Source: Tubiluchus corallicola (lineage: Eukaryota > Animalia > Priapulida). From it: DNA of 64,000 nt. Position 1 is the first letter of the stretch. The number at the start of each line of letters is the position of its first letter. The translations under genes and the position numbers were made by a program. Of this stretch, positions 1,929 through 64,000 are shown one piece after another. The DNA lies in assembly GCA_030141605.1 (NCBI GenBank), contig JAQGDQ010000686.1:1-64000 (forward strand), given 5' to 3'. The notes below the pieces were generated by a model that did no database searches, was not told the origin of the DNA, and saw only the letters and a program-made list of their open reading frames with translations.

Positions 1929-2771
1929 TTATCTGCACAAGCAGATTTTCTTGAAAGCTGTTCTAAACTTGGTATTCATTACAGCATAGATAATTGGATT
2001 GGCAAAACTGTTGCATAAGCCAAGCCAAAGGCTGAAGATGTTTACGATGTTATCTGCAGGACCTGCTTGTGCAATTATGAAATTAGGTCCCCAGCAAACG
2101 AAGAATACAACAGTGGTTACAAGCAACATCTTTGTTGCTTTCATTTCTGCCACCTTTACACTAGACTGTGGATTTTCTTGATGAATTCTCAACACTTGCC
2201 TCCGTGCAGCCTTCCATATTATTGTGTATAATATTGATAATGCGATTATAGGCAAATAAAAGAACAGAATTTTATCCATTAAAAGTGCTGAAGGAAATCC
2301 TTTGTCATCTAGTATTATGATTACATAGGCAGCAGCAAATCCAACAAACCAAATAACACAAATGAAAGCAGCTATCGTCTTCCGTGTGAGATAGATGTTG
2401 TACTTATAGGGATGTAAAACAGCCAAATATCTTTCAGCAGCTATAACACATAGATGCATTATGCTCACACTTGTCGAAGGCATTATGGTGAAGCGACGGA
2501 CTTGTCTTAAAATTTCGTTAGCAAGTCGCGAACGAATTGGCGACAAAGGCATTATTAATCCGATCAACAAATCCGCCACGGCTAGTGACACGATCAGAGC
2601 ATTTATTCCCGTTCGCAGCTGCTCGTACTTGTAAACTGCGACAAGAATTAACATGTTGCCAGCAATCACTGCGAAAGCAGTGACCACATACAAGTATAAA
2701 ACAATTTGTGGAATTTGCAAGTTTTTCTGCTCTGCTTGTAAGGTCGCGTTTAGTGTAGAATTAGCCATCAT
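1929..2771 (-). CDS. Single-exon class A GPCR, family A (A1), 280 aa
   Basis: Seven hydrophobic segments with GN (TM1), LAVAD (TM2), ERY (TM3), W4.50, FYLP (TM5), CWGP (TM6) and NSFANPIIY (TM7), plus helix 8 with Cys. Confidence 0.95.
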   Translation of the reverse strand: MMANSTLNATLQAEQKNLQIPQIVLYLYVVTAFAVIAGNMLILVAVYKYEQLRTGINALIVSLAVADLLIGLIMPLSPIRSRLANEILRQVRRFTIMPSTSVSIMHLCVIAAERYLAVLHPYKYNIYLTRKTIAAFICVIWFVGFAAAYVIIILDDKGFPSALLMDKILFFYLPIIALSILYTIIWKAARRQVLRIHQENPQSSVKVAEMKATKMLLVTTVVFFVCWGPNFIIAQAGPADNIVNIFSLWLGLCNSFANPIIYAVMNTKFRTAFKKICLCR

Positions 2772-3727
2772 ACATGTGTAAGTTAACTGCCATATCTAAT
2801 TTGATAATGCACTAGCTACTCCATCATCCTGGCTATCATACGCAGCTCCCTACTATGAAATGCCACACAACGTATTTTTCCAGTGTATAAATACCGCATT
2901 TATTATGCTTTTATTAAATGTTTAAAATAGGCCAAGTTTGCATGACTATTGATTAGTTTCTGTTTTAGCCTAATGGAAAAAAAGTGCAGAATTGCACGAA
3001 ATAGAATTTTAAAATTATCATGTGTTATGTTAAGGAAACGTTGTGTTTACAGATTACTTATAGTCTAAATGCAACAGACATGGCATTATTTCTGACTGTC
3101 ATATGATAATGATTCTGTTGCTCTGTTCACTAAAAGCTATGTGCTACATACACACAACAAACAGCATTGTTTGAAGCACATTAGTGTCTGTTTATTTTTC
3201 TTTGCCAACAGACTCTATAAGAAGGTAAATAATTTTTTTCCAAAATTTACTGATTCAGATAAAAAAGAAACTTAGCTTTTAATGTTTATTTATCTGCATA
3301 ATTTATAAAACTGCCATGGTACAAATCTCTTACATTTTAGCATGCCTGACTAGTTATCTCAGCAAGTGTATCATCCAAAAAAAAAATCAAAGATGTTCCA
3401 AGATAACCGATGATAAATAAATTTGTTCCTAGATGACTGAAAAAAGTTAAAAAAAGATTTTGTTTCAAGAATGGTATTGTTGGTAAGTTAGTCTGAATTT
3501 GTCTTTGAATGACATCACAAGAGGTATTGTTCGTCATTGTTTTCACGATACCTGTACATTATTGCTTGCTTTTACACCTGTTATTTATAATCACAGTAAT
3601 GTTTTCCGGTAATAGCTTTGTTTACCAAAGGTTCGGCTATGTGCATTTCGAATTTCGAAGTAAAAACTTTTAAGGACTTTTGTTGATAACACAGTGACTA
3701 GCATATACAAAGTACACCTCTTAGTTT

Positions 3728-4573
3728 TTATCTGAACAAACAGATTTTCTTGAAAGCTTTTCTAAACTTGTTATTCATTGCAGCATAGATGATTGGATTG
3801 GCAAAACTGTTGCAATATCCAAACCAAATGCAGAAGAAACAGTTCAGAGCACTATTTGCTGAATCTGGTTCTGCAATTATGAAAGCAGGCCCCCAGCAAA
3901 CGAAGAATACAACAGTGGTCACAAGTAACATCTTTGTTGCTTTCATTTCTGCCACATTTACACTAGTCTGTGGATTTTCTTGATGAATTCTCAACACTTG
4001 CCTCCGTGCAGCCTTCCATATTATTGTGTACAGTACTGACAGTATGATTAGAGGCAAATAAAAGAACAGAATTTTATCTATTAGAACTACTGAATGAAAT
4101 CCCTTCTTCTCTCGTGTTGTGATTAGACAGGCTGCAGCAAACCCAAGAAACCAAGTAGCACAAATGAAAGTAGCTATCATCCTCCCGGTGATGTAGATGT
4201 TGTACTTATAGGGATGCAAAATAGCCAGATATCTTTCCACAGCTATAATGCATAGATGCATTATGCTCACACTTGTCAAAAGCGTCATGGTGAAGTGACC
4301 GACTTGTCTTAAAATTTCGTTAGCCAAATGCAAACGAATTGGTGACACAGGCATTATTAATCCGATCAACAAATCTGCCACAGCTAGTGACACGATCAGA
4401 GCATTCATTTTTATTCGCAACTGCTCATACTTGTAAACTGCGACAAGAATTAACATGTTACCAGCAATCACTGCGAAGACAGTGAACATGTAAAAGTACA
4501 AAGCAATTTGTAGAATTTGCAAGTTTTTCACCTCTGCTTGTCCAGTCACATTTGCTGTAAAATTATCCATCAT
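3728..4573 (-). CDS. Single-exon class A GPCR, family A (A2), 281 aa
   Basis: Intact ORF with all class A motifs; close paralogue of A1. Confidence 0.95.
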   Translation of the reverse strand: MMDNFTANVTGQAEVKNLQILQIALYFYMFTVFAVIAGNMLILVAVYKYEQLRIKMNALIVSLAVADLLIGLIMPVSPIRLHLANEILRQVGHFTMTLLTSVSIMHLCIIAVERYLAILHPYKYNIYITGRMIATFICATWFLGFAAACLITTREKKGFHSVVLIDKILFFYLPLIILSVLYTIIWKAARRQVLRIHQENPQTSVNVAEMKATKMLLVTTVVFFVCWGPAFIIAEPDSANSALNCFFCIWFGYCNSFANPIIYAAMNNKFRKAFKKICLFR

Positions 4574-5996: not shown

Positions 5997-6827
5997 TTAT
6001 CTGCACAAACAGATTTTCTTGAAAGCTTTTCTAAACTTGCTATTCATTGCTGCATAGATGATTGGATTGGCAAAACTGTTGCAATATCCAAACCAAACCC
6101 AGAAGATATCTGGCGGACCTGGTTGTGCAATTATGAAACTAGGTCCCCAGCAAACGAAGAATACAATAGTGGTCACAAGTAACATCTTTGTTGCTTTCAT
6201 TTCTGACACCTTTACACTAGTCTTTGGATTTTCTTGATGAATTCTCAGCACTTGCCTCCGTGCAGCCTTCCATATTATTGTGTACAGTACTGATAATATG
6301 GTTAGAGGCAAATAAAAGAACAGAATTTTATCTGTTAGAACTACTGAATGAAATCCCTTCTTCTCTAGCATTGTGATTAGAAAGGCTGCAGCAAACCCAA
6401 GAAACCAAGTAGCACAAATGAAAGTAGCTATCATCCTCCCTGTGATGTAGATGTTGTACTTATAGGGATGCAAAATAGCCAGATATCTTTCCACAGCTAT
6501 AATGCATAGATGCATTATGCTCACACTTGTCAAAAGCGTCATGGTGAAGTGACCGACTTGTCTTAAAATTTCGTTAGCCAAATGCAAACGAATTGGTGAC
6601 ACAGGCATTACTAATCCGATCAACAAATCTGTCACAGCTAGTGACACGATCAGAGCATTCATTTTTATTCGCAGCTGCTCGTACTTGTAAACTGCGACAA
6701 GAATTAACGTGTTGCCAGCAATCACTGCGAAGACAATGAACACGTAAAAGTACAAAGCAATTTGCCAAATATGCAAGTATTTCACCTCTGATTGTTCTGT
6801 CACATTTGCAGTAAAATTATCCATCAT
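5997..6827 (-). CDS. Single-exon class A GPCR, family A (A3), 276 aa
   Basis: Intact 7TM ORF; ECL3 shortened by 5 aa relative to A2. Confidence 0.95.
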   Translation of the reverse strand: MMDNFTANVTEQSEVKYLHIWQIALYFYVFIVFAVIAGNTLILVAVYKYEQLRIKMNALIVSLAVTDLLIGLVMPVSPIRLHLANEILRQVGHFTMTLLTSVSIMHLCIIAVERYLAILHPYKYNIYITGRMIATFICATWFLGFAAAFLITMLEKKGFHSVVLTDKILFFYLPLTILSVLYTIIWKAARRQVLRIHQENPKTSVKVSEMKATKMLLVTTIVFFVCWGPSFIIAQPGPPDIFWVWFGYCNSFANPIIYAAMNSKFRKAFKKICLCR

Positions 6828-9245: not shown

Positions 9246-10076
9246 TTATCTGCACAAACAGATTTTCTTGAAAGCTTTTCTAAACTTGCTATTCATTGCT
9301 GCATAGATGATTGGATTGGCAAAACTGTTGCAATATCCAAACCAAACCCAGAAGATATCTGGCGGACCTGGTTGTGCAATTATGAAACTAGGTCCCCAGC
9401 AAACGAAGAATACAATAGTGGTCACAAGTAACATCTTTGTTGCTTTCATTTCTGACACCTTTACACTAGTCTTTGGATTTTCTTGATGAATTCTCAGCAC
9501 TTGCCTCCGTGCAGCCTTCCATATTATTGTGTACAGTACTGATAATATGGTTAGAGGCAAATAAAAGAACAGAATTTTATCTGTTAGAACTACTGAATGA
9601 AATCCCTTCTTCTCTAGCATTGTGATTAGAAAGGCTGCAGCAAACCCAAGAAACCAAGTAGCACAAATGAAAGTAGCTATCATCCTCCCTGTGATGTAGA
9701 TGTTGTACTTATAGGGATGCAAAATAGCCAGATATCTTTCCACAGCTATAATGCATAGATGCATTATGCTCACACTTGTCAAAAGCGTCATGGTGAAGTG
9801 ACCGACTTGTCTTAAAATTTCGTTAGCCAAATGCAAACGAATTGGTGACACAGGCATTACTAATCCGATCAACAAATCTGTCACAGCTAGTGACACGATC
9901 AGAGCATTCATTTTTATTCGCAGCTGCTCGTACTTGTAAACTGCGACAAGAATTAACGTGTTGCCAGCAATCACTGCGAAGACAATGAACACGTAAAAGT
10001 ACAAAGCAATTTGCCAAATATGCAAGTATTTCACCTCTGATTGTTCTGTCACATTTGCAGTAAAATTATCCATCAT
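9246..10076 (-). CDS. Single-exon class A GPCR, family A (A4), protein identical to A3
   Basis: 276-aa ORF identical to 5997-6827. Confidence 0.93.
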   Translation of the reverse strand: MMDNFTANVTEQSEVKYLHIWQIALYFYVFIVFAVIAGNTLILVAVYKYEQLRIKMNALIVSLAVTDLLIGLVMPVSPIRLHLANEILRQVGHFTMTLLTSVSIMHLCIIAVERYLAILHPYKYNIYITGRMIATFICATWFLGFAAAFLITMLEKKGFHSVVLTDKILFFYLPLTILSVLYTIIWKAARRQVLRIHQENPKTSVKVSEMKATKMLLVTTIVFFVCWGPSFIIAQPGPPDIFWVWFGYCNSFANPIIYAAMNSKFRKAFKKICLCR

Positions 10077-12486: not shown

Positions 12487-13332
12487 TTATCTGCACAAAC
12501 AGATTTTTTTGAATGCTTTTCTAAACTTGCTATTCATTGCAGCATAGATCATTGGATTGGCAAAACTGTTGCAATATCCAAACCAAATGCAGAAGAAAAA
12601 ATTCAGAGTGCTATTTGCCGAATCTGGTTTTCTTATTATGAAATTAGGCCCCCAGCAAATGAAGAATACAACAGTGCTCACAAGTAACATCTTTGTTGCT
12701 TTCATTTCTGACACCTTTACACTAGACTGTGGATTTTCTTGCCGAATTCTCAACACTTGCCTCCGTGCAGCCTTCCATATTATTGTGTATAACACTGATA
12801 GTATGATTACAGGCAAATAAAAGAACAGAATTTTATCCATTAGAAACACTGAATGAAATCCTTTCAAGTTTAGTGCCATGATTAAATAGGCTGCAGCAAA
12901 CCCAAGAAGCCAAGTAGCACAAATGAAAGCAGCTATCATCCTCCCTGTGATGTAGATGTTGTACTTATAGGGATGTAAAATAGCCAAATATCTTTCCACA
13001 GCTATAATGCATAGGTGCATTATGCTCACATTTGTCAAAAGCGTCATGGTGAAGCGAATGACATGTCTTAAAATTTCGTTAGCTAGTCTCAAGCGAATTA
13101 CTTGCAAAGGCATTATTTCTCCAACCAACAAATCCACCACGGCTAGTGACACGATCAGAGCATTCATTTTCGTTCGCAGCTGCTCGTACTTGTAAACTGC
13201 GACAAGAATTAACATGTTGCCAGCAATCACAATGAAAGCAGTGACCACAAACAAGTATAAAGCAATTTGCCAAATATGCAAGTTTTTCACCTCTGCTTGT
13301 CCGGTCGCATTTGCAGTAAAATTATCCATCAT
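12487..13332 (-). CDS. Single-exon class A GPCR, family A (A5), 281 aa
   Basis: Intact 7TM ORF; unusual Glu in TM2 (DLLVGEIMP). Confidence 0.95.
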   Translation of the reverse strand: MMDNFTANATGQAEVKNLHIWQIALYLFVVTAFIVIAGNMLILVAVYKYEQLRTKMNALIVSLAVVDLLVGEIMPLQVIRLRLANEILRHVIRFTMTLLTNVSIMHLCIIAVERYLAILHPYKYNIYITGRMIAAFICATWLLGFAAAYLIMALNLKGFHSVFLMDKILFFYLPVIILSVLYTIIWKAARRQVLRIRQENPQSSVKVSEMKATKMLLVSTVVFFICWGPNFIIRKPDSANSTLNFFFCIWFGYCNSFANPMIYAAMNSKFRKAFKKICLCR

Positions 13333-13712: not shown

Positions 13713-13889
13713 CAGAGCATTCATTTTCGTTCGCAGCTGCTCGTACTTGTAAACTGCGACAAGAATTAACATGTTGCCAGCTATCACTGCGAAGACAGTG
13801 AACACGTAAAAGTACAAAGCAATTTGTGGAATTTGCAAGTTTTTCACCTCTGCTTGTCCAGTCATATTTGCTGTAAAATTATCCATCAT
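13713..13889 (-). pseudogene. 3'-truncated family A GPCR fragment (N-terminus, TM1, ICL1)
   Basis: MMDNFTANMTGQAEVKNL...YEQLRTKMNAL, then joins the upstream flank of A5. Its own 5' flank (13890-14100) is retained. Confidence 0.88.
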
Positions 13890-16452: not shown

Positions 16453-17301
16453 TCATTTGCACAAACAGATTTTCTTGAAAGCTGCTCTAAACTTGTTGTT
16501 CATTACGGCATAAATGATTGGATTGGCAAAACTGTTGGAGAATCCAAACCAAAGCCTGAGTAAAGTATAATAGTCATTTTTCACAGGACCTAGTTTTGGA
16601 ATTATGAAAACAGGTCCCCAGCAAACGAAGAATACAACAGTGACCACAAGTAACATCTTTGTTGCTTTCATTTCTGACACCTTTACACTAGTTTGTGGAT
16701 TTTCTTGATGAATTCTCAACAGTTGCCTCCGTGCAGCCTTCCATATTATTGTGTATAGTACTGATAGTATGATTAGAGGCAAATAAAAGAACAAAATGTT
16801 ATCCACGAGAACTACTGAATGAAATCCTTTAGGGATGTACAACGCTATGATTAGACAGACTGCAGCAAACACAAGAAACCAAGTAGCACAAATGGAAGCA
16901 GCTATCATCTTCCCGGTAATGTACATGTTGTACTTATAGGGATGTAAAATAGCCAGATACCTTTCTGCAGCTATAACACATAGATGTATTATGCTCACAT
17001 TCATCAGAAATATCATAATGCATTCACCAACTAGAATTAACATTGCGTTATCTTTTTTCAAACGAGGGATTGTTGAAGGCAGCATTAGTCCGACTAATAA
17101 GTCTGCCACAGCTAGCGACACGATCAGTGCATTCGTTTTTGTCCGTAGCTCTACGTACTTATAAACAGCTACTAAAATTAACATGTTGCCAGCAATTATA
17201 GCCACAGCAGTAAACACATACAAGCATAAGATTATTTGTAAAGTAGTAGATGGTTGCTTCTGCACTCCATCCTGTGTCATATTTGCAGTAAAGTTAATCA
17301 T
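16453..17301 (-). CDS. Single-exon class A GPCR, family A (A6), 282 aa
   Basis: Intact 7TM ORF with GN, LAVAD, ERY, FYLP, CWGP and NPIIY. Confidence 0.95.
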   Translation of the reverse strand: MINFTANMTQDGVQKQPSTTLQIILCLYVFTAVAIIAGNMLILVAVYKYVELRTKTNALIVSLAVADLLVGLMLPSTIPRLKKDNAMLILVGECIMIFLMNVSIIHLCVIAAERYLAILHPYKYNMYITGKMIAASICATWFLVFAAVCLIIALYIPKGFHSVVLVDNILFFYLPLIILSVLYTIIWKAARRQLLRIHQENPQTSVKVSEMKATKMLLVVTVVFFVCWGPVFIIPKLGPVKNDYYTLLRLWFGFSNSFANPIIYAVMNNKFRAAFKKICLCK

Positions 17302-20392: not shown

Positions 20393-21241
20393 TCATTTGC
20401 ACAAGCAGATTTTCTTGAAAGCTGCTCTAAACTTGTTGTTCATTACGGCATAGATGATTGGATTGGCAAAACTGTTACAGTATCCAAACCAAAGCCTGAG
20501 CAAATTATAGCGGTCATTTTTCAAAGGATCCTTTTTTGTAACTATGAAAGTAGGTCCCCAGCAAACGAAGAATACAACAGTGGTCACAAGTAACATCTTT
20601 GTTGCTTTCATTTCTGCCACCTTTACACTAGTCTGTGGATTTTCTTGATGAATTCTCAACACTTGCCTGCGTGCAGCCTTCCATATTATTGTGTATAGTA
20701 CTGATAGTATGATTATAGGCAAATAAAAGAATAAAATGTTATCCACGAGAAATACTGAACCAAATCTTTTAGTTACATATAGTGCTATGATCAGACTGGC
20801 TGCAGCAAACCCAAGAAACCAAGTAGCGCAAATGAAAGCAGCTATCATCTTCCCTGTGATGTAGCTGTTGTACTTATAGGGATGTAAAACAGCCAGATAC
20901 CTTTCTGCAGCTATTACACATAGATGTATTATGCTCACGTTTGTCAAAAATATTATAACACATTCACGAACTAGAGCTAAAATTGCGTTATCTTTTTTCA
21001 AACGGATGATTTTAGAAGGCAGCATTATTCCGACTAGTAAATCCGCCACGGCTAGCGACACGATCAGTGCATTTGTTTTCGTCTGTAGCTGTATGTACTT
21101 ATAAACAGCTACTAAAACTAACAGGTTGCCAGCAGTTATAGCCACAGCAGTAAACACATACAAGTATAAGAAAATTTGTAAAGTAATATATGGTTGTTTC
21201 TGCACTCCATCCTGTGTCATATTTACTGTAAAATTAATCAT
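20393..21241 (-). CDS. Single-exon class A GPCR, family A (A7), 282 aa
   Basis: Intact 7TM ORF. Confidence 0.95.
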   Translation of the reverse strand: MINFTVNMTQDGVQKQPYITLQIFLYLYVFTAVAITAGNLLVLVAVYKYIQLQTKTNALIVSLAVADLLVGIMLPSKIIRLKKDNAILALVRECVIIFLTNVSIIHLCVIAAERYLAVLHPYKYNSYITGKMIAAFICATWFLGFAAASLIIALYVTKRFGSVFLVDNILFFYLPIIILSVLYTIIWKAARRQVLRIHQENPQTSVKVAEMKATKMLLVTTVVFFVCWGPTFIVTKKDPLKNDRYNLLRLWFGYCNSFANPIIYAVMNNKFRAAFKKICLCK

Positions 21242-22894: not shown

Positions 22895-23743
22895 TTATTT
22901 GCACAAACAGATTTTCTTGAAAGCTGCTCTAAACTTGTTGTTCATTACGGCATAGATGATTGGATTGGCAAAACTGTTACAGTATCCAAACCAAAGCCTG
23001 AGCAAATTATAACGGTCATTTTTCAAAGGATCCTCTTTTGTAACTATGAAAGTAGGTCCCCAGCAAACGAAGAATACAACAGTGGTCACAAGTAACATCT
23101 TTGTTGCTTTCATTTCTGCCACATTTACACTAGTCTGTGGATTTTCTTGATGAATTCTCAACACTTGCCTGCGTGCAGCCTTCCATATTATTGTGTATAG
23201 TACTGATAGTATGATTAGAGGCAAATAAAAGAATAAAATGTTATCCACGAGAAATACTGAACCAAATCTTTTAGTTACATATAATGCTATGATCAGACTG
23301 GCTGCAGCAAACCCAAGAAACCAAGTAGCGCAAACGAAAGCAGCTATCATCTTCCCTGTGATGTAGATGTTGTACTTATAGGGATGTAAAACAGCCAGAT
23401 ATCTTTCTGCAGCTATTACACATAGATGTATTATGCTCACGTTTGTCAAAAATATTATAACACATTCACGAACTAGAGCTAAAATTGCGTTATCTTTTTT
23501 CAAACGGATGATTTTAGAAGGCAGCAGTAGTCCAATTAGTAAGTCTGTCACGGCTAGCGACACGATCAGTGCATTCGTTTTTGTCTGTAGCTGTATGTAC
23601 TTATAAACAGCTACTAAAACTAACATGTTACCAGCAATTATAACCACATCAGTAAACACATACAAGCATAAGAAAATGTGTAAAGTAGTAGATGGTTGTT
23701 TCTGAGCTCCATCCTGTGTCATATTTGCAGTAAAGTTAATCAT
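22895..23743 (-). CDS. Single-exon class A GPCR, family A (A8), 282 aa
   Basis: Intact 7TM ORF; body nearly identical to A7, N-terminus like A6. Confidence 0.95.
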   Translation of the reverse strand: MINFTANMTQDGAQKQPSTTLHIFLCLYVFTDVVIIAGNMLVLVAVYKYIQLQTKTNALIVSLAVTDLLIGLLLPSKIIRLKKDNAILALVRECVIIFLTNVSIIHLCVIAAERYLAVLHPYKYNIYITGKMIAAFVCATWFLGFAAASLIIALYVTKRFGSVFLVDNILFFYLPLIILSVLYTIIWKAARRQVLRIHQENPQTSVNVAEMKATKMLLVTTVVFFVCWGPTFIVTKEDPLKNDRYNLLRLWFGYCNSFANPIIYAVMNNKFRAAFKKICLCK

Positions 23744-25469: not shown

Positions 25470-26304
25470 TTACTTGCACAAACAGATTTTCTTGAAAGCT
25501 TTTCTAAACTTGTTGTTCATTACAGTATAGATGATCGGATTGGCGAAACTGTTACAGTATCCAAACCAAATGCAGAAGAATGAGGCAATATTTGTTGAGT
25601 CTGGTTCTGAAATTATGAAAGTAGGGCCCCAGCCAATGAAGAATACAACAGTGACCACAAGTAACATCTTTGTTGCTTTCATTTCTGCCACGTTTACACT
25701 AGTCTGTGGATTTTCTTGATGAATTCTCAACACTTGCTTCCGTGCAGCCTTCCATATTATTGTGTACAGTGCTGATATTATGATCATAGGCAAATAAAAG
25801 AACAGAATTTTATCCATTAGAACTACTGAACGAAATCCTGTCTTCTCTAGTGCTATGACTAAACAGGTGCCAGCAAACCCAAGAAACCAAATAACAGAAA
25901 CAAAAGTAGCTATCATCTTCCCGGTGATGTAGATGTTGTACTTATAGGGATGTAAAATACCTTTCAACAGCTATTACACACAGATGTATTATGCTCACAT
26001 TTACTGAAAATAACACAACATATCTGGTAACATTTAATATTAATATCATGTTAACCAGACTCAAGAGAATTACTCTCACAGGCAGCATTATTCCGACTAG
26101 TAAATCCGCTACAGCTAGCGACACGATCAGTGCATTCGTTTTCGTCTGTAGCTGTATGTACTTATAAACAGCTACTAAAACTAACAGGTTGCCAGCAGTT
26201 ATAGCCACAGCAGTAAACACATACAAGTATAAGAAAATTTGTAAAGTAATATATGGTTGTTTCTGCACTCCATCCTGTGTCATATTTACTGTAAAATTAA
26301 TCAT
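25470..26304 (-). pseudogene. Family A GPCR (A9) with an 8-bp frameshifting deletion just after ERY
   Basis: Split ORFs 25942-26304 and 25470-25967. Relative to A10, gccagata (plus strand) is deleted between ata microhomologies at ~25958. Confidence 0.9.
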
Positions 26305-27979: not shown

Positions 27980-28822
27980 TCATTTGCACAAACAGATTTT
28001 CTTGAAAGCTGCTCTAAACTTGTTGTTCATTACGGCATAGATGATTGGATTGGCAAAACTGTTACAGTATCCAAACCAAAGCCTGAGCAAATTATAACGG
28101 TCATTTTTCAAAGGATCCTCTTTTGTAACTATGAAAGTAGGTCCCCAGCAAACGAAGAATACAACAGTGGTCACAAGTAACATCTTTGTTGCTTTCATTT
28201 CTGCCACGTTTACACTAGCCTGTGGATTTTCTTGATGAATTCTCAACACTTGCCTGCGCGCAGCCTTCCATATTATTGTGTATAGTACTGATAGTATGAT
28301 TATAGGCAAATAAAAAAACAGAATTTTATCCATTAGAACTACTGAATGAAATTCTTTCCTCTTTAGTGTTGTCAGCAGACAGGCTGCAGCAAACCCAAGA
28401 AACCAAATAACAGAAATAAAAGCAGCTATCGTCTTCCCGGTGATGTAGATGTTATACTTATAGGGATGTAAAATAGCCAGATACCTTTCAACAGCTATTA
28501 CACACAGATGTATTATGCTCACATTTACTGAAAGTACCACAACAAATCCGGCGACATCATTTAATATTAATATCGTGTTAACCAGACTTAAGAGAATTAC
28601 TCTCACAGGCAGCACTATTCCGACTAGTAAATCCGCCACAGCAAGCGACACGATCAGTGCATTCGTTTTCGTTTGCAATTGTGTGTATTTATAAACTGCT
28701 ATCAGAACTAACATGTTGCCAATAATTACAAGCACAGCAGTAAACAGGTACAAAACAACTTGAAGATTTTGCAAGAGTTTCTGCTCTGTTTGATCTGTCA
28801 CATTTATCGAAAAATTAACCAT
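27980..28822 (-). CDS. Single-exon class A GPCR, family A (A10), 280 aa
   Basis: Intact 7TM ORF; C-terminal third essentially identical to A8. Confidence 0.95.
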   Translation of the reverse strand: MVNFSINVTDQTEQKLLQNLQVVLYLFTAVLVIIGNMLVLIAVYKYTQLQTKTNALIVSLAVADLLVGIVLPVRVILLSLVNTILILNDVAGFVVVLSVNVSIIHLCVIAVERYLAILHPYKYNIYITGKTIAAFISVIWFLGFAAACLLTTLKRKEFHSVVLMDKILFFYLPIIILSVLYTIIWKAARRQVLRIHQENPQASVNVAEMKATKMLLVTTVVFFVCWGPTFIVTKEDPLKNDRYNLLRLWFGYCNSFANPIIYAVMNNKFRAAFKKICLCK

Positions 28823-41800: not shown

Positions 41801-44800
41801 CGATTTTGCCACCATGAACACAACAGAAAGTGGGGTTACATTTTTAGCAAAGTCTGTAATTTCAATAAAAGTTCTGCTGCTAATACTATTAGGTATTACT
41901 ATAATAGTTGGAAACTTATTAGTTCTGATTGCAGTTTGTAAGATTCCTCGTTTACAAACTAAAACAAATGTTCTTGTTGCATCTCTTGCTGTAACTGATT
42001 TACTTGTTGGTTTATCAATGCCTGCAGAAGTGACCTCATTATTGTATCCAGCTGTGTTGTCAAACCAAGTGTTTGTATTCGTGCTGTACATATTTGAAGT
42101 TGGAATGGTGAATGCAAGCATATTACACTTGTGTCTGATAGCAGTTGAAAGACATGTGGCTGTTGTTCATCCATTCAAGTATCACACCAACGTGAGAAAA
42201 GAAACCATTGTTGCTGCACTTTCCATTACTTGGATTTTTGCTTTAACTGAGGCAGTTATTTATGTTATTTTCAAATACATTTTGAATGTACAAAGTCTAT
42301 TAATCGTTGATGTTACTGTAGCATTTTATTTACCAGTGCTAACGATTCTTGTGCTCTATGCCCTAATTTGGAGAACTGCAAGAAGGCACATCTTACAGAT
42401 ACATAGTCAAATTCAAGGAAGCCAGGCAAATGTGATGGAGATGAAAGCAACAAAAAGTTTAGCCATTGTTACCTTTGCTTTTCTGGTGTGTTGGGGTCCC
42501 TTTTCTCTGTATCAGACAGTTTGTTATATATTGTTTTACGAAGAGAATCAGGAAGTAACTCAGTTTTTATATGTATTTGGATTTATCAACAGTGCCATTA
42601 ATCCAATCGTGTATGCACTGTCTAGCACTGATTTTAGATGGGCTGTCAAAAAAATGTTGCTTTCACGTGAATTGTAAAACTTAATGCGAAAAACTTTCAC
42701 GTGAATTGCTTTCCGTTAATTATAGCTGAGTTAATAGCACGAAACTGAGAAACCGCACAAGTGAGCAAAATTCTTCAAATAGAGCACACAATTGACCACG
42801 TTTTTTGAAGCCAACATCCAAGTAATGTTCCAAAGATGTGCTAAAAAATTGAGCAACATTTTATGTGTAATAGATCGTCAGATTAATGAGCTTGATATAA
42901 TGAAGCAGCCAAATAGTTTACACACACTTAGCAACATATTTAAGTTGAACACACAGTGTCCATTTATAATAGTCTAAGGTTATAATGTTGTATGCATGTT
43001 ATACAAATGTTATATATATTGCACCATTGTGAGAACGAATGACATTATGCTGCATCATTGTGAAAATGAATGACATTATAACGCATCATTGTGAAAATGA
43101 ATGACATTATAACGCATCATTGTGAGAATGAATGACATTATATAGCATCACTGTGAGAATGAATGACATTGTACTGCATCATTGTGAGAATAAATGACAT
43201 TATACTGCATCATTGTGAGAATAAATGACATTATATTGCATCACTGTAAGAATAAATGACATTATATTGCATCATTGTGAGAATGAATAACATCATACTG
43301 CATCATTGCAAGAATAAATGACATTATACTGCATCATTGTGAAAATGAATGACATTATATTGCATCATTGTGAGAGTAAATGACATTATACTGCATCATT
43401 GTAAGAATGAATGACATTATATTGCATCATTGTGAGAATGAATGACATTATATAGCATCACTGTGAGAATGAATGACATTGTACTGCATCATTTTGAGAA
43501 TGAATGACATTATACTGCATCACTGTGAGAATGAATGACATTATACTGTATCATTGTGAAAATGAATGACATTATACTGTATCATGTGAAAATGATCATA
43601 CGTAGTTTGCTTGTATTTCAGACAGTGATTTCCTTGTAAATGTGTTTTCAGATTTTCGATTGCAGTGAAAATACGACAAGGACATTTACGAATGCAAATG
43701 CTCTACTTTTGCAAACCTTTCGAACGTTTTTCCAAATGCGATGTTGTGAACATGAATACATCTTCGTTACTGGTCGATTTTGCCACAATGAACACAACAG
43801 AATGTGGGGTTACATTTTTAGCAAAGTCTGTGATTTCAATAAAAGTTCTGCTGCTAATACTATTAGGCATTGCTATAATAGCTGGAAACTTATTAGTTCT
43901 GATTGCAGTTTGTAAGATTCCTCGTTTACAAACTAAAACAAATGTTCTTGTTGCATCTCTTGCTGTAACTGATTTACTTGTTGGTTTATCAATGCCTGCA
44001 GAAGTGACCACAGTGTTGTATCCAGCTGTGTTGTCAAACCAAGTGTTTGTATTGGTACTGTTCATAGTTGAAGATGGGATAGTGAATGCAAGTGCATTAA
44101 ACTTGTGTCTGATAGCAGCTGAAAGATATGTGGTTGTTGTTCATCCATTCAAGTATCACAAAATCGTGAGAAAAGAAACCATAGTTGCTGCACTTTCCAT
44201 TACTTGGATTTTTGCTTTAACTGTGGCAGCGGTTTGTGTTATTTTCTTTTTTGTTTTCAATAAACGTGGTCTGTTAGTCGTTGATGCCACTTTAACATTT
44301 TATTTACCGATGTTTGCGATTTTTGTACTGTATGTGCTAATTTGGAGAACTGCAAGAAGGCACGTCTTGCAGATACACAGCCAAGGTCTAGAAAGCCAGG
44401 CAAACATGATGCAAATGAAAGCAACAAAAACTTTAGCCATTGTTACCTTTACTTTTCTGGTATGTTGGGGTCCCTTTTCTCTGTATCAGACAGTTTGTTA
44501 TATATTGTCTTACGAACCTAAATATGATATAGTTCAGGCTTTATATATAATTGGATTTATCAACAGTGCCATTAATCCAATCGTGTATGCACTGTCTAGC
44601 ACTGATTTTAGATGGGCTTTCAAAAAAATGTTGCTTTCACGTGAATTGTAAAACTTAATGCGAAAAACTTTCACGTGAATTGCTTTCACTTAATGATAAC
44701 TGCGTTAATAGCATGAAACTGAGAAACCGCACGAGTCAGCAAAATTCTTCAAATAGAGCACACAATTGACCAAGTTTTTTGAAGCGAACATCCAAGTAAT

Positions 44801-47800
44801 GTTCCAAAGATGTGCTACAAAATTGAGTATCATTTTATGTGTAACAGATCGTCAGATTAATGAGCTTGATATAATGAAGCAGCCAAACAGTTTACACACA
44901 CTTAGTAACACATTTAAGTTGATCAAACAATGTCTAATTATAATAGTCTCAGGTTATATTGTTGTATGCATGTTTACTAAAACATTATTCTGGCTCGGCA
45001 TATCCACAGAACTAATCTTCCATGTTGCACAGTAGTTGCGTTACATCTTTCTGCGTGTGCACTTAGCGTTTATAAAGAGAAGGTTTGTTATCATAGCTAT
45101 TATGCTTTTTAATGTATATAACATCATGCTGAATCAATACTGCGTGAGAATGATAATTTTATCGTTTATATGTGTTGTGTTTGTTTCTAGCAACCTTGCA
45201 GATGGTACCATGCATGGCCATTTTTAGATTTGCCATAGCTGGCTTTGTAGTGAGACGTTACATAAACAGTCGCGGTTGGTAACTTGTTCTGTTTTCTTGT
45301 AGTAAAAATTTGTAGTTCTCTACACTTGCTTGAAGGTCTGACTTTTATTGACGACACATAAAAACTTCTCTGATCATGAACTCGACTTCGTTTTTGGTTG
45401 CAGTAATTGTTTTGAATTAAATTCAAACTTAGTTTACATAGGTGTGGAATGTTTATTGTATACATTTATGAAGTACATACAGCCAGCCGGAAATCAGACG
45501 TCATACACTTGCAGTTTAAGCTAGAGCAAATTTATGGCTGCCGTCTAACAATACACGCTGCACTTACCTAATTGCTGAAATGCTTTCGTGAATCAAAGTA
45601 AACTTGCATAGCAAACGGGTATTTGTTCTGCAAATGTACTTTGTGGTTATAAAATCCCTATGAATAGAAATGCAGCTAGGATGATCCTAGCTGTTGTGCT
45701 TTTTAATATAAATGACATTATACTGCATCATTATGAGAATGAATCACTTATACTGCATCATTGTGAACATGAATGATATTATACTGCATCATTGTGAGAA
45801 TGAATGACATTAGACTGCATCATTATGAGAATGAATGACATTATATTGCATCATTATGAGAATGAGTGACATTATACTGCATCACTGTGAACATGAATGA
45901 CATTATACTGCATCATTGTGAGAATGAATGACATTATATGGTATCATTGTGAGAGTAAATGACATTATACTGCATCATTGTGAGAATGAATGACATTATA
46001 TTGCATCATTGTGAGAATAAATGACATTATATTGCATCATTGTGAGAACGAATGACATTATACTGCATCATTGTGAGAATGAATGACATTATGATGCATC
46101 ATTGTGAGAATGAATGACATTATATTGCATCATTGTGAGAATGAATGACATTATACTGCATCATTGTGAAAATGAATGACATTATACTGTATCATTGTGA
46201 AAATGAATGACATTATACTGTATCTTTGTGAAAATGATCATACATAGTTTGCTTGTATTTCTGACAGTGATTTCCTTGTAAATGCGTTTTCAGATTTTCG
46301 ATTGCAGTGAAAATATGACACAGACATTTACGCATGCAAATGTTCTACTTTTGCAAACCTTTCGAACGTTTTTCGAAATGCAATGTTGTGAACATGAATA
46401 GATCTTCGTTACTGGGTGATTTTGCTACCATGAACACAACAGATAGTGGGGTTACATTTTTAGCAAAGTCTGTGATTTCAATAAAAGTTCTGCTGCTAAT
46501 ACTATTAGGTATTGCTATAATAGTTGGAAACTTATTAGTTCTGATTGCAGTTTGTAAGATTCCTCGTTTGCAAACTAAAACAAATGTTCTTGTTGCGTCT
46601 CTTGCTGTAACTGATTTACTTGTTGGTTTATCAACACCAGCAGAAGTGACCACAGTGTTTTATCCAGCTGTGCTGTCAAACCAAGTGTTTGTATCGGTGC
46701 TGAACATTTTTGAAATAGGAATGGTGAATGCAAGTGCATTAAACTTGTGTCTGATAGCAGCTGAAAGATATGCGGCTGTTGTTCATCCTTTCAAGTATCA
46801 CACCATCGTGAGAAAAGAAACCATTGTTGCTGCACTTTCCATTACTTGGATTTTTGCTTTAACTGTGGCAGCACTTTGTGTTATTTTCACGTTCATTTTC
46901 AATAAACATGGACTGTTAATCGTCGATGCTACTTTAGCATTTTATTTACCGATGTTTACGATTTTTGTACTGTATGTCCTAATTTGGAGAACTGCAAGAA
47001 GGCACGTCTTGCAGATACACAGTCAAGGTCTAGAAAGCCAGGCAAACGTGATACAAATGAAAGCAACAAAAACTTTAGCCATTGTTACCTTTGCTTTTCT
47101 GGTATGTTGGGGTCCGTTTTCTCTGTATCAGACAGTTTGTCATATATTGTCTTATGAAGAGAATGATGAAATAAATAAGTTTTTATATGTATTTGGATTT
47201 ATCAACAGTGCCATTAATCCAATCGTGTATGCACTGTCTAGCACTGATTTTAGATGGGCTTTCAAAAAAATGTTGCTTTCACGTGAATTGTAAAACTTAA
47301 TGCGAAAAACTTTCACGTGAATTGCTTTCATTTAATGATAACTGCGTTAATAGCATGAAACTGAGAAACCCCACAAGTGAGCAAAATTCTTCAAATAGAG
47401 CACACATTGACCAAGTTTTTTGAAGCGGACATCCAAGTAATGTTCCAAAGATGTGCTACAAAATTGAGTATCATTTTATGTGTAATAGATCGTCAGATTA
47501 ATGAGCTTGATATAATGAAGCAGCCAAATAGTTTACACACACTTAGCAACATATTTAAGTTGAGCAAACAATGTCCAATTATAATAGTCTAAGGTTATAG
47601 TGTTGTACGCATGTTTACTAAAACATTATTCTGGCTCGGCATATCAACAGAACTAATCTTCCATGTTGCACAGTAGTTGCGTTACATCTTTCTGCATGTG
47701 CACTTAGCGTTTAGAAAGAGAAGGTTTGTTATCATAGCTATTATGCTTTTTAATGTATATAACATCATGCTGAATCAATACTGCGTGAGAATGATAATTT

Positions 47801-50800
47801 TATCATTTATACGTGTTGTGTTTGTTTCTAGCAACCTTGCAGATGGTACCATGCATGGCCATTTTCAGATTTGCTATAGCTGGCTTTGTAGTGAGATGTA
47901 ACATAAACAGTCGCAGTTGGTAACTTGTTCTGTTTTTGTAGTAAAAATTTGTAGTTCTCTAGACTTGCTTGAAGGTCTGACTTTTATTGATGACACATAA
48001 AAACTTCTCTGATCATGAACTCGACTTCGTTTTTGATTGATTTTACTGCAGTAAATTTAACGGAAGACGAGGCTTCGCGATTATGAGCATTGCTATAACT
48101 GTCGGAAACTTGTTAGTTCTGATGGCAGTTTGTAAGATTTCTCGTCTGCAAACTAAAACAAATGCTCTCATTGCATCACTTGCAGTAACTGACTTGTTGG
48201 TTTATCAATGCCAGTAGAGATTACTGCAGTGTTGTATTTGGTTCTGAAATCAAATGCAGTATTTGTAGCGGTGCAGCAGGTATTTGAATTGGGATTGATA
48301 TATGCAAGCATGTTTCACCTGTGTCTGATAGCAGCTGAAAGATACATAGCTGTTGTTCATCCATTCAAATATCACAGCATCATGAGAAAAGAAGCCATTG
48401 TTGCTGCACTTTGCATTACATGGATTGTTGCTTTCATTGAGGCAATTATTAATGATATCATCAGAATCATCTTCAAAGCACAGAGTCTTTTGATTCTTGA
48501 TGATATTTTAGCATTTTATTTACCATGTTCTCGATTGTTATACTGTATGTTCTAATTTGGAAAACTGCAAGAAGGCACGTTTTACAGATACACAGTCAGT
48601 ATCAGGGAAGCCAGGCAAACGTGATGCAAATGAAAGCAACAAAAACTTTAGCCATTGTTACCTTTGCTTTTCTAGTATGTTGGGGACCTGAGTATGTGTA
48701 TGAGACGTTTTGTTACATATTTTCTTATGAAGAGGAACATACTAGTACGATATCGATGCCATTTGCACTTGGATTAACCAACAGTGCCGTTAATCTAATC
48801 ATATACGCATTTTCTAATACTGACTTCAAAATGGCTTTCAAGGAAATTTTGTTTTGACAAACAGTGTCAGAAAATTGCATTAATCACATGCAACTAACAT
48901 TCCTAACATAGAGCATACATGTAAACAGCATTTTTGAATAGGAATAGATGATCAAACGCATTTTTCAGGCAAGTGGTTATTATATGTGCTTAGCAACCAT
49001 TTAAGCAATGTTGAGACTGTCTCGATTAATGGTGACTAGTTGCAGTACTTTAGTTCTTAGCAGTTCCGTTTGGGGTTTGCAGTGTCCCGAATCATGTAAT
49101 AAGCTACTGACAAGATAAATAGCAATGCCAAATTTTGTAACGATGTAAACTGACTTGTTAATAAATGCATTACAGATAAATAAATATTTAAATGATGTGA
49201 ACTGTAGTAATGTCAAAATGCAGACACTAGATTTAACAATTTTTGTATATAATGCCAAATAATGAGATTTTTCACCACCTACAATGAAGGTAGTGATCGT
49301 TTTTTGTTTAAACGTACTTATTTGTTTCCATTATCATCTGTAAAGCAGTTATGCTACTTGACCAAAGATTTTTCTCAATGTATTGCAAACATAAACCAGT
49401 TTTGTACCCAACTAACTAGAGAAAAACTGTCTAAACAATTTGTTGATACATTAAATAAGAGTCTGTTATTGTGTTTAAACTATATATTGTATGCACTGTT
49501 GTATCTATCTTTATTGTATTGATAGTGGTATAATATATTGATATTGAACATGTTGTTACAATTGGTTTTTTATCGTGTTCAATGAAATGTTTGCAGTACG
49601 TAATGTTTTACCAGTCTATTCTGATCAGAAATGAAAAGAAATGAAAGGAAGTTTGCACAGGTGTGGTAATACGTACACATTTCAGACACCTAACTGTTGA
49701 AGCATTAAAGTAGTCTTTGGACAATAGTTTAACAGGTGGGATAATATGTACACATCACATGCATTAACTGTGGAAGTGCTCTTTCACATGGCACTTCGTT
49801 TTTATGATTGGACAGTTGTTTCCTAGGTGCTGTAGGACGTGTTATGACTCGTGTATTTCACAAATATCTCAGACTTAAATCTGCAGGCCTATGTGTAATC
49901 TTTACCTGTGTACATAATTTTTTAATCTATTAAGCTTATAATTGGTTTTAACCACTAGCTCTCATTTATCTTTTATCATTTGCTGTGTCCAACTAACTTT
50001 ATGGACATTTTCATGTGTGAAATAAAATTGAAATTTAATTCAAAACTTACGTAGGTGTGGTAATGTTTATTGTATGCATCTACGAAGTCATCCAGCCAGA
50101 AATCAGATGTCATACACCTACTGTCTAAGCTAGAGAAAATTTATTGCCACCGTCTAACAATACATATTGCTCTTGCCTAATAGCTGAAATGTTTTCGTGA
50201 TCCAAAGTAAACTTACAAAGTAAAGAGCAATTGTTCTGCCGATGTGCTTTGTGTCTATAAAATTCTATGGCTAAAAACATTTTCATTGTGGCTTGTTAAT
50301 ATAAATGACATTATATTGGATCATTGTGAGAATGACTGTGTATAGTTTGATTGTATTTCTGATAATGCTTTTCTTGTAAATGTATTTCCCATTTGCCATT
50401 GCAATGAAAATACAACACGGACATTTGCTAAAGTCAACTGAATGCTCGGCTACCTGTTCATTCTGTCTTTCATGACAGGTGTGTTTATCAATGAAAATGC
50501 TCTGCTTTTGCAAACCTTTCTGACTTTTTTCGAATGCGATGCTATGAACATGAATACGTCTTCATTTTTGGTTGATTTTGCTACTATGAATACAACAGAA
50601 AACGGGGTTACATATTTAGCAAAGTCTGTGACATCAATAAAAGTTCTGCTGTTCCTCTTATTGGGTATTTCTATAATAGGTGGAAACTTTTTAGTACTGT
50701 TTGCAATTTGTAAGTTTCCTCGTTTACAAACTAAAACAAATGTTCTTGTTGCTTCACTTGCTGTAACTGATTTACTTGTTGGCTTATCTACGTCAGCAGA

Positions 50801-53800
50801 AGTGACCACAGTGTTGTATCCAGCTGTGGCATTAAACCAAGTGTTTGTATTGGTGCAGTACATATTTTTACTAGGAATGATGACTGCAAGTACACTAAAC
50901 TTGTGTCTCATAGCAGCTGAAAGATATGTGGCTGTTGTTCATCCTTTCAAGTATCAAACCATCGTGAGAAAAGAAGCCATTGTTGCAGCACTTTGTATTT
51001 CTTGGACTTTTGCTTTAACTGAGACAGTTATTTATGTTATTTTCGTATACATTTTGAATGCACAAAGTCTATTTTTCGTTGATGTTACTGTAACATTTTA
51101 TTTACCAGTGCTAACAATTCTTGTGCTCTATGCCCTAATTTGGAAAACTGCAAGAAGGCATGTCTTACAGATACACAGTCAAGGTCTAGAAAGCCAGGCA
51201 AACGTGATACAAATGAAAGCAACAAAAACATTAGCCGTTGTTACATTTGCTTTTCTGGCATGTTGTGGTCCCATTTCTCTGTATCAGACAGTTTGTTATA
51301 TATTGCCTTATGAAGAGAATCTTGAAGTAACTCATTTTTTACTTGCATTCGTATGCACCAATAGTGCCATTAATCCAATCGTGTATGCACTGTCTAGCAC
51401 AGATTTTAGATGGGCTTTCAAAAAAATTTTGTTTTCGCATCAAATGTCTTGTAACTGCGTTAATAGCATAAAACTGAGAAACCGCACAAGTGAGCAAAAT
51501 TCTTCAAATAGAGCACACAATTGACCAAGTTCCTCAAAACGACCATTCCGGGAGCATAATGTTCCAGAAATGTGCTACACATCTAAGCAGCGCTTTCGTG
51601 TAGTAACCGATTGAAGATTAAAGAGCTGGAAATAAGTAACACAACTGAACAACAATCATGAAATGGAGAACAACCAAACAACAAGCCTGAAGCAGAGCAC
51701 ACAACTAAATAATAAGCCTGAAGCAGAGCACACAACTTAACAAGCCTGAAGCAGAGCACACAACTGAACAACAAGCCTGAAGCGGAGCACACAACTGAAC
51801 AACAAGCCTGAAGCAGAGCACACAACTTAACAAGCCTGAAGCGGAGCACACAACTGAACAACAAGCCTGAAGCGGAGCACACAACTGAACAACAAGCCTG
51901 AAGCAGAGCACACAACTGAACAACAAGCCTGGAGTGGAGCACACAACTGAACAACAAGCCTGAAGCAGAGCACACAACTGAACAAGCCTGAAGCGGAGCA
52001 CACAACTGAACAAGCCTGAAGCGGAGCACACAACCAAACAACAAGCCTGAAGCAGAGCACACAACTGAACAAGCCTGAAGCGGAGCACACAACTGAACAA
52101 CAAGCCTGGAGTGGAGCACACAACTGAACAACAAGCCTGAAGCGGAGCACACAACTGAACAATAAACCTGAAGCAGAGCACACAACTGAACAAGCCTGAA
52201 GCGGAGCACACAACTGAACAACAAGCCTGAAGCAGAGCACACAACTGAACAATAAACCTGAAGCGGAGCAAACAACTGAACAATAAACCTGAAGCGGAGC
52301 ACACAACTGAACAACAAGCCTGAAGCGGAGCACACAACTGAACAAGCCTGAAGCGGAGCACACAACTGAACAACAAGCCTGAAGCAGAGCACACAACTGA
52401 ACAAGCCTGAAGCGGAGCACACAACCAAACAACAAGCCTGAAGTGGAGCACACAACTGAACAATAAACTAGAAGTGGAGCACACAACCAAACAACAAGCC
52501 TGAAGCGGAGCACACAACCAAACAACAAGCCTGAAGTGGAGCACACAACTGAACAACAAGCCTGGAGTGGAGCACACAACTGAACAACAAGCCTAGAAGC
52601 AGAGCACACAACTGAAGATCAAGCCTGAAGCGGAGCACACAACCAAACAACAAGCCTGAAGCGGAGCACACAACTGAACAACAAGCCTGAAGCAGAGCAC
52701 ACAACTGAACAACAAGCATCTGAGGTGGAGCCCACAACGGAACAACATTTTATTTTTGGTGTGTATTCAACTGCCGAATAAATACACTATTTACTGTAAA
52801 TGGTAATTTTTTATGATTTATAATTTTCTTTTAATGTTAGAATTAATATTTTTAATATATTTTTAAACATTTTGTGATTTTTGCCAAATTTATCAAATCT
52901 ATACATTACTGTACAATATGTACTACGCATGTGCAAAAATGCTTTAGACGGAGTACCGCAAAACAGTGAAACAGCGAAAATACCTCGATAAATATTTTAC
53001 ATTAATATTTTTGAAAACCCGCAAAACAGCGAGTCCGCGATAAACGAACCGCGACGTAGCGAGGGAACATTGTACAAAAAAAACATAAGTGTAGAGGTGC
53101 ATCACTTGTTCACACGGGCCCGACTTGCAACCATTTTGTCTTACGGCCAATTTGCTGGAACCGACCGTGGTCATAATTCAACGCCAACCTGTATACAAGC
53201 AGTTAAATAAAGCAAATCTTATATGCCAAACCAGGAATTTTTAATATAATAGATAAGGGGACAGAGAAAAAGAAACAAAAAGAAAAAGCTAAAATACCAT
53301 ACTAGATGTTCTGAATGTAAAAGGGAAACAGGCAAGCGTCCGAGTGTCATTCGGCTGACCGCTGTTATACCATTCCATATATGGACAAGTGAACTGTTGG
53401 CTCGTGCTGAACACATCTACCTAGTGATAGTGAAAAATAGTCAGTTACAAAAGCATCACATTACAAACCCATTTATAATAAGCAAATTAAAGGACAAGTA
53501 AACACTCATAAATATAATTTGAAATTTTGTGTTGCTTACATGTAGCCTTTCTACGCACAGAACTTGTATTAGCAACAACGCTGTATAAAACTTGTAAATT
53601 TAAATTCCCACAGCCATTTTGATGTTCACTCGTGCAAAACAAGTTTAGATAGTATTATGCGAAGTTTAAAAAAATAATTAGAGTAATACTAGGACACTCT
53701 TTGCTAACTAAGCAAAAGTATTCATTACTTTATACTGTCAATAAGATCAACAATGCATTATTGTGAATCAGTGGTGCACACTGGGGTGGTAATACCGTGA

Positions 53801-63050: not shown

Positions 63051-63575
63051 GTTAGGCTATTTATCAACACGCATGTGCTAAGCTGATCCCTACGCCTTAT
63101 TACTTTTATTATTGAAATATAATTTGATGATGAGTGTAAATAGGTAAGGTAAGGCTACTGTGTATGCCTAATTGTGAATGTGTTTGCTTGACCAAGGTAA
63201 ACGTGCACAGCATGCATGCAGTCCTTCAGCTGTATTAAGTAATTGACCAGCAGGTAGCTAGGCATTTACACAATGTTTGCAGTAGGAATGTTGCTACAAC
63301 ACATCATGGTAATACTATTCTTTAATGCCAATAACATTTTAACAACCTCGCGTAATGAGAACGACTGTGGGAAGCAGATATAGCAGTGTTTGTGGTTCTG
63401 ACTGAATTTCACTTTGCTAAATTGATTAGATTTGCCATAACTTGTCTTAGCTGTTGCTAAAATAGAAAGTCGGTGGTTTTTGTACCTTTATCTTCTGCGA
63501 CTATAGCGTTTTAACCAATAGTGGCACCTCAGTTTGCATGAAGTTCTGACTTGATACACAGAACATAAACCTGAC

Positions 63576-64000
63576 ATGGATATGAATTCATCTTTGGGTG
63601 ACTTTGTTGAAGTAACCTGGGACATTGTTTTGGCAAAGCCAGTAGCAATTGTGCTGCTGATGATGTTACTGGGCTCAGCTATAACTGCAGGAAATCTGTT
63701 AGTGCTGATTGCAATTTACAAAGTTCCTCGTTTGCAAACTAAAACAAATGCTCTTATAGCATCGCTTGCGGTGACTGATTTACTTGTTGGTTTATCTACA
63801 CCGGCAGAAGTGGCAGCAGAGTTACATCCACCTATTAGATCAAACCAAGCATTTGTAATCGTACAGTACACATTTGAAAATGGAATGATAAATGCAAGTA
63901 TTTACCATCTATGCCTGATAGCTGCTGAAAGATACCTAGCTGTTGTTCATCCATTCAAGTATCACACCATCATGAGAAAAGAAACCATTGTTGCTGCACT
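63576..64000 (+). CDS. Family B GPCR (B6), 5' part, runs off the window end
   Basis: Open frame MDMNSSLGDF...AGNLLVLIAIYKVPRLQTKTNALIASLAVTDLLVGLSTP...QYTFENGMINASIYHLCLIAAERYLAVVHPFKYH...; absent from the ORF track because there is no stop in the window. Confidence 0.9.
   Translation, partial: MDMNSSLGDFVEVTWDIVLAKPVAIVLLMMLLGSAITAGNLLVLIAIYKVPRLQTKTNALIASLAVTDLLVGLSTPAEVAAELHPPIRSNQAFVIVQYTFENGMINASIYHLCLIAAERYLAVVHPFKYHTIMRKETIVAA

Follow-up and report, generated by a model that had tools for sequence, protein, structure and literature searches.

The 64,000-nucleotide stretch analysed here (the window) comprises positions 1 to 64,000 of contig JAQGDQ010000686.1 in assembly GCA_030141605.1 of the priapulid Tubiluchus corallicola, and it raises a question of function: what role is played by a dense set of receptor genes that keep an aspartate at position 5.42 in every copy where that position is present? 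The window (GC content ~36%) holds two arrays of single-exon genes for G protein-coupled receptors (GPCRs) of class A, very compact and with at least 16 tandem genes encoding proteins of 276–324 aa. Family A occupies 1.9-28.8 kb of the minus strand and consists of nine intact open reading frames (ORFs) and one frameshifted copy. Family B, at 41.8-64 kb of the plus strand, has four intact copies, one with two frameshifts, and one cut by the window end; the two families are ~37-41% identical. Among the 13 intact ORFs, A3 and A4 share one and the same coding sequence, leaving 12 distinct intact proteins. The reading we favour, to which we give an even chance, is that these genes form a chemosensory repertoire whose members are predicted to anchor an amine through Asp5.42, in a birth-and-death array that would have descended from an amine-type receptor in parallel to the TAARs.

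The window receptors belong to class A. Pfam 7tm_1 was matched at E ~1e-35 to 1e-37 in all four receptor ORFs tested, and N1.50, D2.50, E/DRY, W4.50, P5.50, CWxP (CCGP in B5), NPxxY, and a seven-transmembrane fold are all present. The structural model of B1 (mean predicted local distance difference test score, pLDDT, 72) superimposes on the beta1-adrenoceptor with a TM-score of 0.82, a Z of 32, and a root-mean-square deviation of 2.1 A; the single-sequence model of A6 was poor (pLDDT 55) and was not used, and the best match of A6 among solved structures is the histamine H2 receptor (E 1e-29). Transmembrane helix 2 (TM2) carries its Pro at 2.58, and the C-terminal ends read NPxxY..xNxKF in family A and ..STDF in family B. 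Intracellular loop 3 (ICL3) is short, similar to the H2 and beta1 constructs, which by analogy suggests Gs-type coupling. On the outer side, none of the 17 copies and fragments that include TM3 has Cys at position 3.25 (the residue is R, I, A, L, N, or V), and only 33-34 residues separate W4.50 from P5.50, compared with 50-52 in the TAAR, H2-like, and Priapulus rows; from these two features it follows that the lid formed by extracellular loop 2 (ECL2) and its disulfide are gone. In family A, ECL1 and the TM6-TM7 links are also shortened (P6.50-P7.50 around ECL3 can be as short as 26 residues), and these disulfide-free proteins of 276-282 aa are near-minimal class A scaffolds.

With residues numbered per copy from R3.50 and P5.50, Asp5.42 was found in all 15 TM5-bearing copies, that is, in 10/10 copies of family A (including the frameshifted A9) and 5/5 of family B (B1-B5, including the frameshifted B4), and its codon is GAT each time. 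Position 3.32 is hydrophobic (I/M/V) in 10/10 family A copies, or 11/11 when the inverted A1-like fragment is counted, and is Glu in five of the six family B copies (B1, B2, B3, B4, and B6) and Leu in B5. An earlier note on this DNA had reported both patterns, and they held, as did its numbering: the segment 5.42-5.50 aligns without gaps to the histamine H2, TAAR13e, and beta1-adrenoceptor chains. In the B1 model, the TM5 helix spans residues 173-210, of which D178 (5.42) is the sixth. A helix-cap role for this residue is ruled out for B1 by the same model, in which the helix begins five residues earlier.

How much weight the invariance carries depends on the background of change around it. 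Among the 12 distinct intact proteins (A4, identical to A3, as well as A9, B4, and B6 were excluded from site counts, trees, and substitution rates), invariant sites number 2 of 77 in the outer half (V3.27 and D5.42) and 56 of 131 in the inner half, and D5.42 is the sole invariant polar site of the outer half. A Poisson expectation with a mean of 3.17 changes predicts ~3 invariant outer sites, and one alone is therefore unsurprising; what counts is the identity of the site, namely a charged residue at a position known as an anchor. Within the families, 5.42 would stay free of amino-acid change with a probability of ~0.055 if it evolved neutrally and of 0.01 if it evolved as fast as the pocket, figures that leave out the deep A-B branch, along which Asp5.42 likewise stays.

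The contrast between the outer and inner halves, which was set before counting, is also seen in the ratio of nonsynonymous to synonymous change (dN/dS, as pairwise within-family dN over gene-wide dS). The inner half, at 0.24 in family A and 0.41 in family B, is under purifying selection. The pocket sites, at 1.37 (95% confidence interval 0.9-2.1) in A and 2.19 (1.4-3.5) in B, support relaxed or diversifying selection there, and other outer sites give 1.24 (A) and 0.91 (B). Changes per site reach 6-7 at 3.28, 3.29, 3.33, 6.51, 7.35, and 7.36, with none at D5.42. Such a fast pocket on a conserved inner half is a chemoreceptor-like pattern; a stable coupling face combined with a changing pocket, tandem duplicates, and the frequent loss of genes characterises chemoreceptor repertoires and also those of immune receptors.

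The two families differ in the charges that surround Asp5.42. Over 24 pocket positions, family A has 1-2 acids and 1-4 Lys/Arg, and family B has 2-4 acids and 0-1 Lys/Arg. All six family B copies carry Glu2.60 (B4 numbered from its proline), a third acid, and all ten family A copies carry an Arg in outer TM2 (at 2.63 in eight and at 2.60 in two), both absent from the earlier note. We take 2.60 and 2.63 to face the pocket, as in class A structures. For 2.60, this is supported by the E2.60 site of melanocortin receptors (10.1101/2021.06.20.449193). Family A further has Lys5.43 in 7/10 copies and Arg or His at 3.28 or 3.29 in 8/10, and position 3.37 is polar (Asn/Ser/Thr) in all 12 distinct intact proteins of both families. 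W7.40 is present in 10/10 and Y7.43 in 8/10 copies of family A, which has no acid at 3.32, while both are missing from the four intact copies of family B, despite Glu3.32 in five of six. The canonical aminergic trio of Asp3.32, Trp7.40, and Tyr7.43 does not occur together in any window protein; the signature is split, family A having Trp7.40, Tyr7.43, and Asp5.42 and family B the 3.32 acid and Asp5.42.

Relatives of the window receptors are distant. No close homologue was found among 5.8 billion proteins, the best matches being 30-36% identical, and when 1.84 billion representatives were searched with a profile, no match to a single receptor stood out above ~187 bits. With a widened profile, the close members were only P0001 of Priapulus caudatus and its relative P0244, followed by canonical amine receptors. 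An embedding search led mostly to cnidarian clusters, and the trees to a priapulid protein. A metagenome scan retrieved 16 loci with 25-63% local identity, of which 3 had a usable ORF and none fell within the family's clade. Families A and B are monophyletic (99/91), and in six trees they stand beside P0001 and P0244, with P0347 and often P0294 nearby (93/98 for this assemblage in the carefully built tree). The first tree omitted 14 fused or partial proteins, and 67 and 34 rows, chosen by hand from ~220, went into the IQ-TREE runs. Under the approximately unbiased (AU) test, trees that join the window proteins to clade III-like TAARs are rejected (p 0.015), as are trees that join them to H2-like proteins (p 0.018; four rows identified by motif); both labels are assigned here from motifs and tree position. 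A clade apart from both is supported, in line with the independent evolution that the earlier note had thought possible. An independent invention of Asp5.42 itself is weakened: the nearest relative in all trees (P0001/P0244) already combines Asp3.32, Asp5.42, Trp7.40, and Tyr7.43 (P0001 has C3.25 as well), so that Asp5.42 was likely inherited. The placement beside Priapulus is probable rather than settled because the branches are long. A different clade holds P0256, a short-ECL2 receptor without Cys3.25 whose Asp3.32 and Glu5.42 may make up a further two-acid pocket.

On the chemosensory reading, the ancestor would have been an orphan amine-type receptor with Asp3.32 and Asp5.42. In the simplest history, Asp5.42 would have been inherited and the lid lost, after which the 3.32 acid would have been lost in family A and replaced by Glu in family B, an order that we infer. 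Asp5.42 would then hold the ligand amine while the surrounding pocket residues diversify. Family B, with Glu2.60, Glu3.32, Asp5.42, and few basic residues, might accept di- or polycations, e.g., diamines, spermidine, or small molecules rich in Arg/Lys. Family A, in which Asp5.42 would face Arg, His, or Lys on TM2, TM3, and TM5, might favour compounds that combine an amine with a polar or acidic group over plain monoamines. In zebrafish TAARs, mutagenesis shows that an amine is anchored by Asp5.42, either by itself or together with Asp3.32 (PMC4695389); descendants of neurotransmitter receptors have repeatedly turned into chemoreceptors (PMC11526382), and a two-step model for clade III TAARs resembles the history proposed here (PMC8890504). 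The sequencing reads hold B-like sequences that the window lacks (none of three loose ends compared had a match in the window at <=2 mismatches), and the repertoire is therefore probably larger than the copies in the window. A bolder version is that the window belongs to an independent invertebrate amine-smell system of TAAR type, expanded from an amine-type receptor with two aspartates, a lidless array with an Asp5.42 anchor and with three-acid polyamine and mixed-charge families, which would repeat the clade III course of losing 3.32 and keeping 5.42; we offer it tentatively, as a possibility that probably goes too far.

A number of observations weigh against a repertoire anchored on Asp5.42. 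When contigs of four sequencing runs (two samples) were compared with the TM5 stretch of B1, a B-like copy outside the window was found in which the codon GAT is changed to GGT (Gly5.42; A>G at position 42310) in three runs and both samples (among the matches listed, one contig for X1, one for X2, two for X4, and none for X3). This sequence may be intact or broken, and a paralog or an allele, and the invariance of Asp5.42 is not genome-wide. An acid at 5.42 occurs in 18/189 non-window rows and so is not rare, and P0347, the other sister, has Thr5.42. For the link to Priapulus, identity is 30-35%, branches are long, and the bootstrap of 93 is unstarred. Grouping with all TAARs (p 0.10; no free tree places the window proteins inside the TAAR clade) and with short-ECL2 Asp3.32 receptors (p 0.099) was not rejected by the AU test. 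As for selection, the non-pocket outer sites of family A evolve as fast as its pocket (1.24 vs 1.37), as would be expected equally under relaxation and under positive selection; the dN/dS values are pairwise counts with an assumed kappa of 2 over non-independent pairs, with gene conversion visible in A9 and A10; and the list of 24 pocket sites follows class A pockets in general and was drawn up after the site counts had been seen. Finally, the number of acids is a poor predictor of ligand class in TAARs, among which there are diamine responses without Asp5.42 and Asp5.43 receptors that bind only monoamines (PMC8890504).

The alternative that survives best, although we think it unlikely, is that the receptors have an open pocket of melanocortin type and serve internally or in surveillance (neuromodulatory, immune, or peptide-sensing), where the acids would bind the Arg/Lys of a peptide or a metal ion. 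Immune receptors, too, evolve by birth and death with diversifying pockets, and larger ligands would also suit receptors that have lost the lid and the Cys3.25-ECL2 disulfide, a loss absent from the earlier note. The absence of Cys3.25, the very short ECL2, and the Glu2.60 of family B all match melanocortin receptors (10.1101/2021.06.20.449193), P0087 has E2.60, and melanocortin clusters rank 2-3 in an embedding search; nevertheless, D3.25 and D3.29 are missing from family B, MC1R (one row) does not group with the window family in the trees, and the descent is probably from an amine-type receptor. We rate as distinctly unlikely the full scheme of the earlier note, with family A as Asp5.42-only monoamine sensors, family B as two-acid diamine sensors, and Asp5.42 arising independently. 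The nearest relative, with its D3.32 and D5.42, speaks against that scheme, although P0347 lacks a 5.42 acid and a separate gain is possible, and it gains from the rejection of the clade III-like and H2-like groupings. Its residue pattern does mirror that of clade III TAARs and TAAR13c; what is weakened is the monoamine assignment of family A, whose basic pockets (TM2 Arg 10/10, Lys5.43 7/10, Arg/His at 3.28/3.29 8/10) hold 1-4 Lys/Arg against 1-2 acids and misfit a simple monoamine cup. For family B the acidic pocket stands, and the likeness to the two-acid TAAR13c fails on the third acid, Glu2.60, and on the lack of Trp7.40 and Tyr7.43; a Tyr near 7.43 is required in mouse TAAR7e (PMC13382630). 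Least probable of all is a structural role, in which a salt bridge or hydrogen bond of Asp5.42 (to Arg/His3.29, Lys5.43, or Asn/Ser3.37) would replace the disulfide or set basal activity and the ligands would not be amines: basic residues do surround D5.42 in family A, the disulfide is lost in all copies, and 3.37 is polar in 12/12, but the basic partners differ among copies and are absent in family B, where the Asp stays, and the Priapulus relative has both Asp5.42 and Cys3.25.

The copies themselves (Table 1) agree with the earlier description of an intronless birth-and-death array, with intact single-exon ORFs, two frameshifted copies, one copy cut by the window end, fragments, and chimeras. 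A9 has an A7-like start and is A10-like thereafter, and the end of A10 is A8-like; by their sequences, both appear to be chimeras produced by unequal crossover or gene conversion. A3 and A4 each lie within a 3.25-kb unit (5514-12012), and the units are 99.5% identical (16 mismatches, 1 gap), i.e., either a very recent duplication or an uncollapsed haplotype or assembly echo. B5 has an open frame with CCGP replacing CWGP, Leu3.32, and a tail 25 residues longer, and may be decaying or have altered activation. The 145-bp minisatellite (96% matches) adjoins the inverted gene fragment.

Table 1. Receptor genes, gene fragments, and other elements in the window.
Feature	Position	Strand	Description
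A1	1929..2768	-	intact single-exon GPCR; D5.42 codon 2274-2276; I3.32
A2	3728..4573	-	intact; D5.42 codon 4076-4078; M3.32
A3	5997..6827	-	intact; D5.42 codon 6330-6332
A4	9246..10076	-	coding sequence identical to A3
A5	12487..13332	-	intact; D5.42 codon 12835-12837
A6	16453..17301	-	intact; D5.42 codon 16801-16803
A7	20393..21241	-	intact; D5.42 codon 20741-20743
A8	22895..23743	-	intact; D5.42 codon 23243-23245
A9	25470..26304	-	frameshift directly past the ERY motif (near 25960); D5.42 retained (25812-25814)
A10	27980..28822	-	intact; C-terminal part common to A8 (chimeric look); D5.42 codon 28328-28330
B1	41778..42677	+	intact; E2.60 42027-42029, E3.32 42096-42098, D5.42 42309-42311
B2	43752..44651	+	intact; E2.60, E3.32, D3.33, D5.42 (44283-44285)
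B3	46394..47293	+	intact; E2.60, E3.32, D5.42 (46925-46927)
B4	48074..48854	+	frameshifts near 48195 and 48525; E3.32, D5.42, D5.43 retained
B5	50550..51524	+	intact ORF; L3.32, degenerate toggle motif CCGP; E2.60 and D5.42 (51081-51083) retained
B6	63576..64000	+	ends at window edge in ICL2/TM4; E2.60, E3.32
Inverted fragment of A1-like gene	432..791	+	TM1 end to TM4
145-bp tandem repeat, 8.8 copies	756..2031	-	derived from the TM7/H8 region at the 3' end of a family A gene
A-type gene 5' fragments (two)	13704-13886, 14473-14640	-	
Polycystin-1-like spliced exons	58397-58648, 55557-55730, 34168-34611, 32641-32826	-	GPS motif and first TM, PLAT-like pieces, GT/AG ends
LINE retrotransposon	38813-41309	+	RVT_1 (E 6e-35); directly upstream of B1
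Decayed related LINE copy	60.2-63.0 kb	+	upstream of B6
Large minisatellites	29085-32324, 37624-38286, 43015-46237, 51639-52747, 60791-61394		62, 78, 31, 38 bp units; long spurious ORFs

The window also contains exons similar to those of a polycystin-1-like gene, for which the Pfam GPS match is sub-threshold (E 0.059). B1-B5, in antisense orientation, fall between two of them and may be nested in an intron. No later polycystin-1-like exons were found by motif; the A array may likewise be intronic, or the gene may be truncated.

Of the known systems, the closest in organisation are the teleost TAARs (clade III with Asp5.42 only, TAAR13 with Asp3.32 and Asp5.42) and the lamprey TARLLs, which, like the window genes, are single-exon, tandem, amine-related class A receptors with Asp5.42, with or without a 3.32 acid, at ~25-36% identity. 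In contrast to TAARs, the window receptors have no Cys3.25 or ECL2 lid, carry the TM2 Pro at 2.58 instead of 2.59, have Glu rather than Asp at 3.32, and add Glu2.60 (family B) or a basic pocket (family A). The C-terminal TAAR fingerprint, which we take to be NSxxNPxx[YH]xxx[YF]xWF, is present in the named TAAR P0121 and absent from the window copies. TAARs are described as vertebrate (PMC11526382), and by the sequence features tested the window receptors would not be TAARs, though they may work alike. Priapulus P0001 and its relative P0244 share D5.42 with both families, the 3.32 acid with B, W7.40 and Y7.43 with A, and an EMKAT motif before TM6; they differ in having Cys3.25 and a full ECL2 (W4.50-P5.50 51 aa), are 30-35% identical, and are not known to be expanded. 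The name of P0001, "beta-2 adrenergic receptor-like", is an automatic label, and the receptor is an orphan. The histamine H2 receptor matches in its TM5 motif (LVDxxxxFYLP) and ICL3 length, but has Asp3.32, Cys3.25, and a full ECL2, and the grouping is rejected. Melanocortin receptors share the missing TM3-ECL2 disulfide, the very short ECL2, and, with family B only, Glu2.60; the window receptors lack their D3.25/D3.29 calcium site, have Pro5.50, and stand apart in trees.

Lineage-specific expansions of orphan class A receptors are common among invertebrates, which makes this array a good candidate rather than a discovery. They include the sea urchin surreal-GPCRs, echinoderm OR-like receptors (PMC7042368), and a cnidarian-specific monoamine-like clade (PMC10244343), for which sensory roles have been proposed. 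The available part of these sources does not describe a kept Asp5.42; the echinoderm OR-like motif LxxPxYxxxxxLxxxDxxxxxxxxP (PMC7042368) is absent from the window, where those places hold neither Pro nor Tyr and the Pro lies one residue earlier. In the open-licence literature, as far as the sources were available, we found no invertebrate array with Asp5.42, only vertebrate TAARs; relatives could still appear in GPCR trees given as supplements to genome papers. Transitions from amine receptor to chemoreceptor have been described for vertebrate TAARs and lamprey TARLLs, and an independent case outside them, if true, would probe how repeatable the Asp5.42 route is, with two sister families of opposite pocket charge as a natural experiment.

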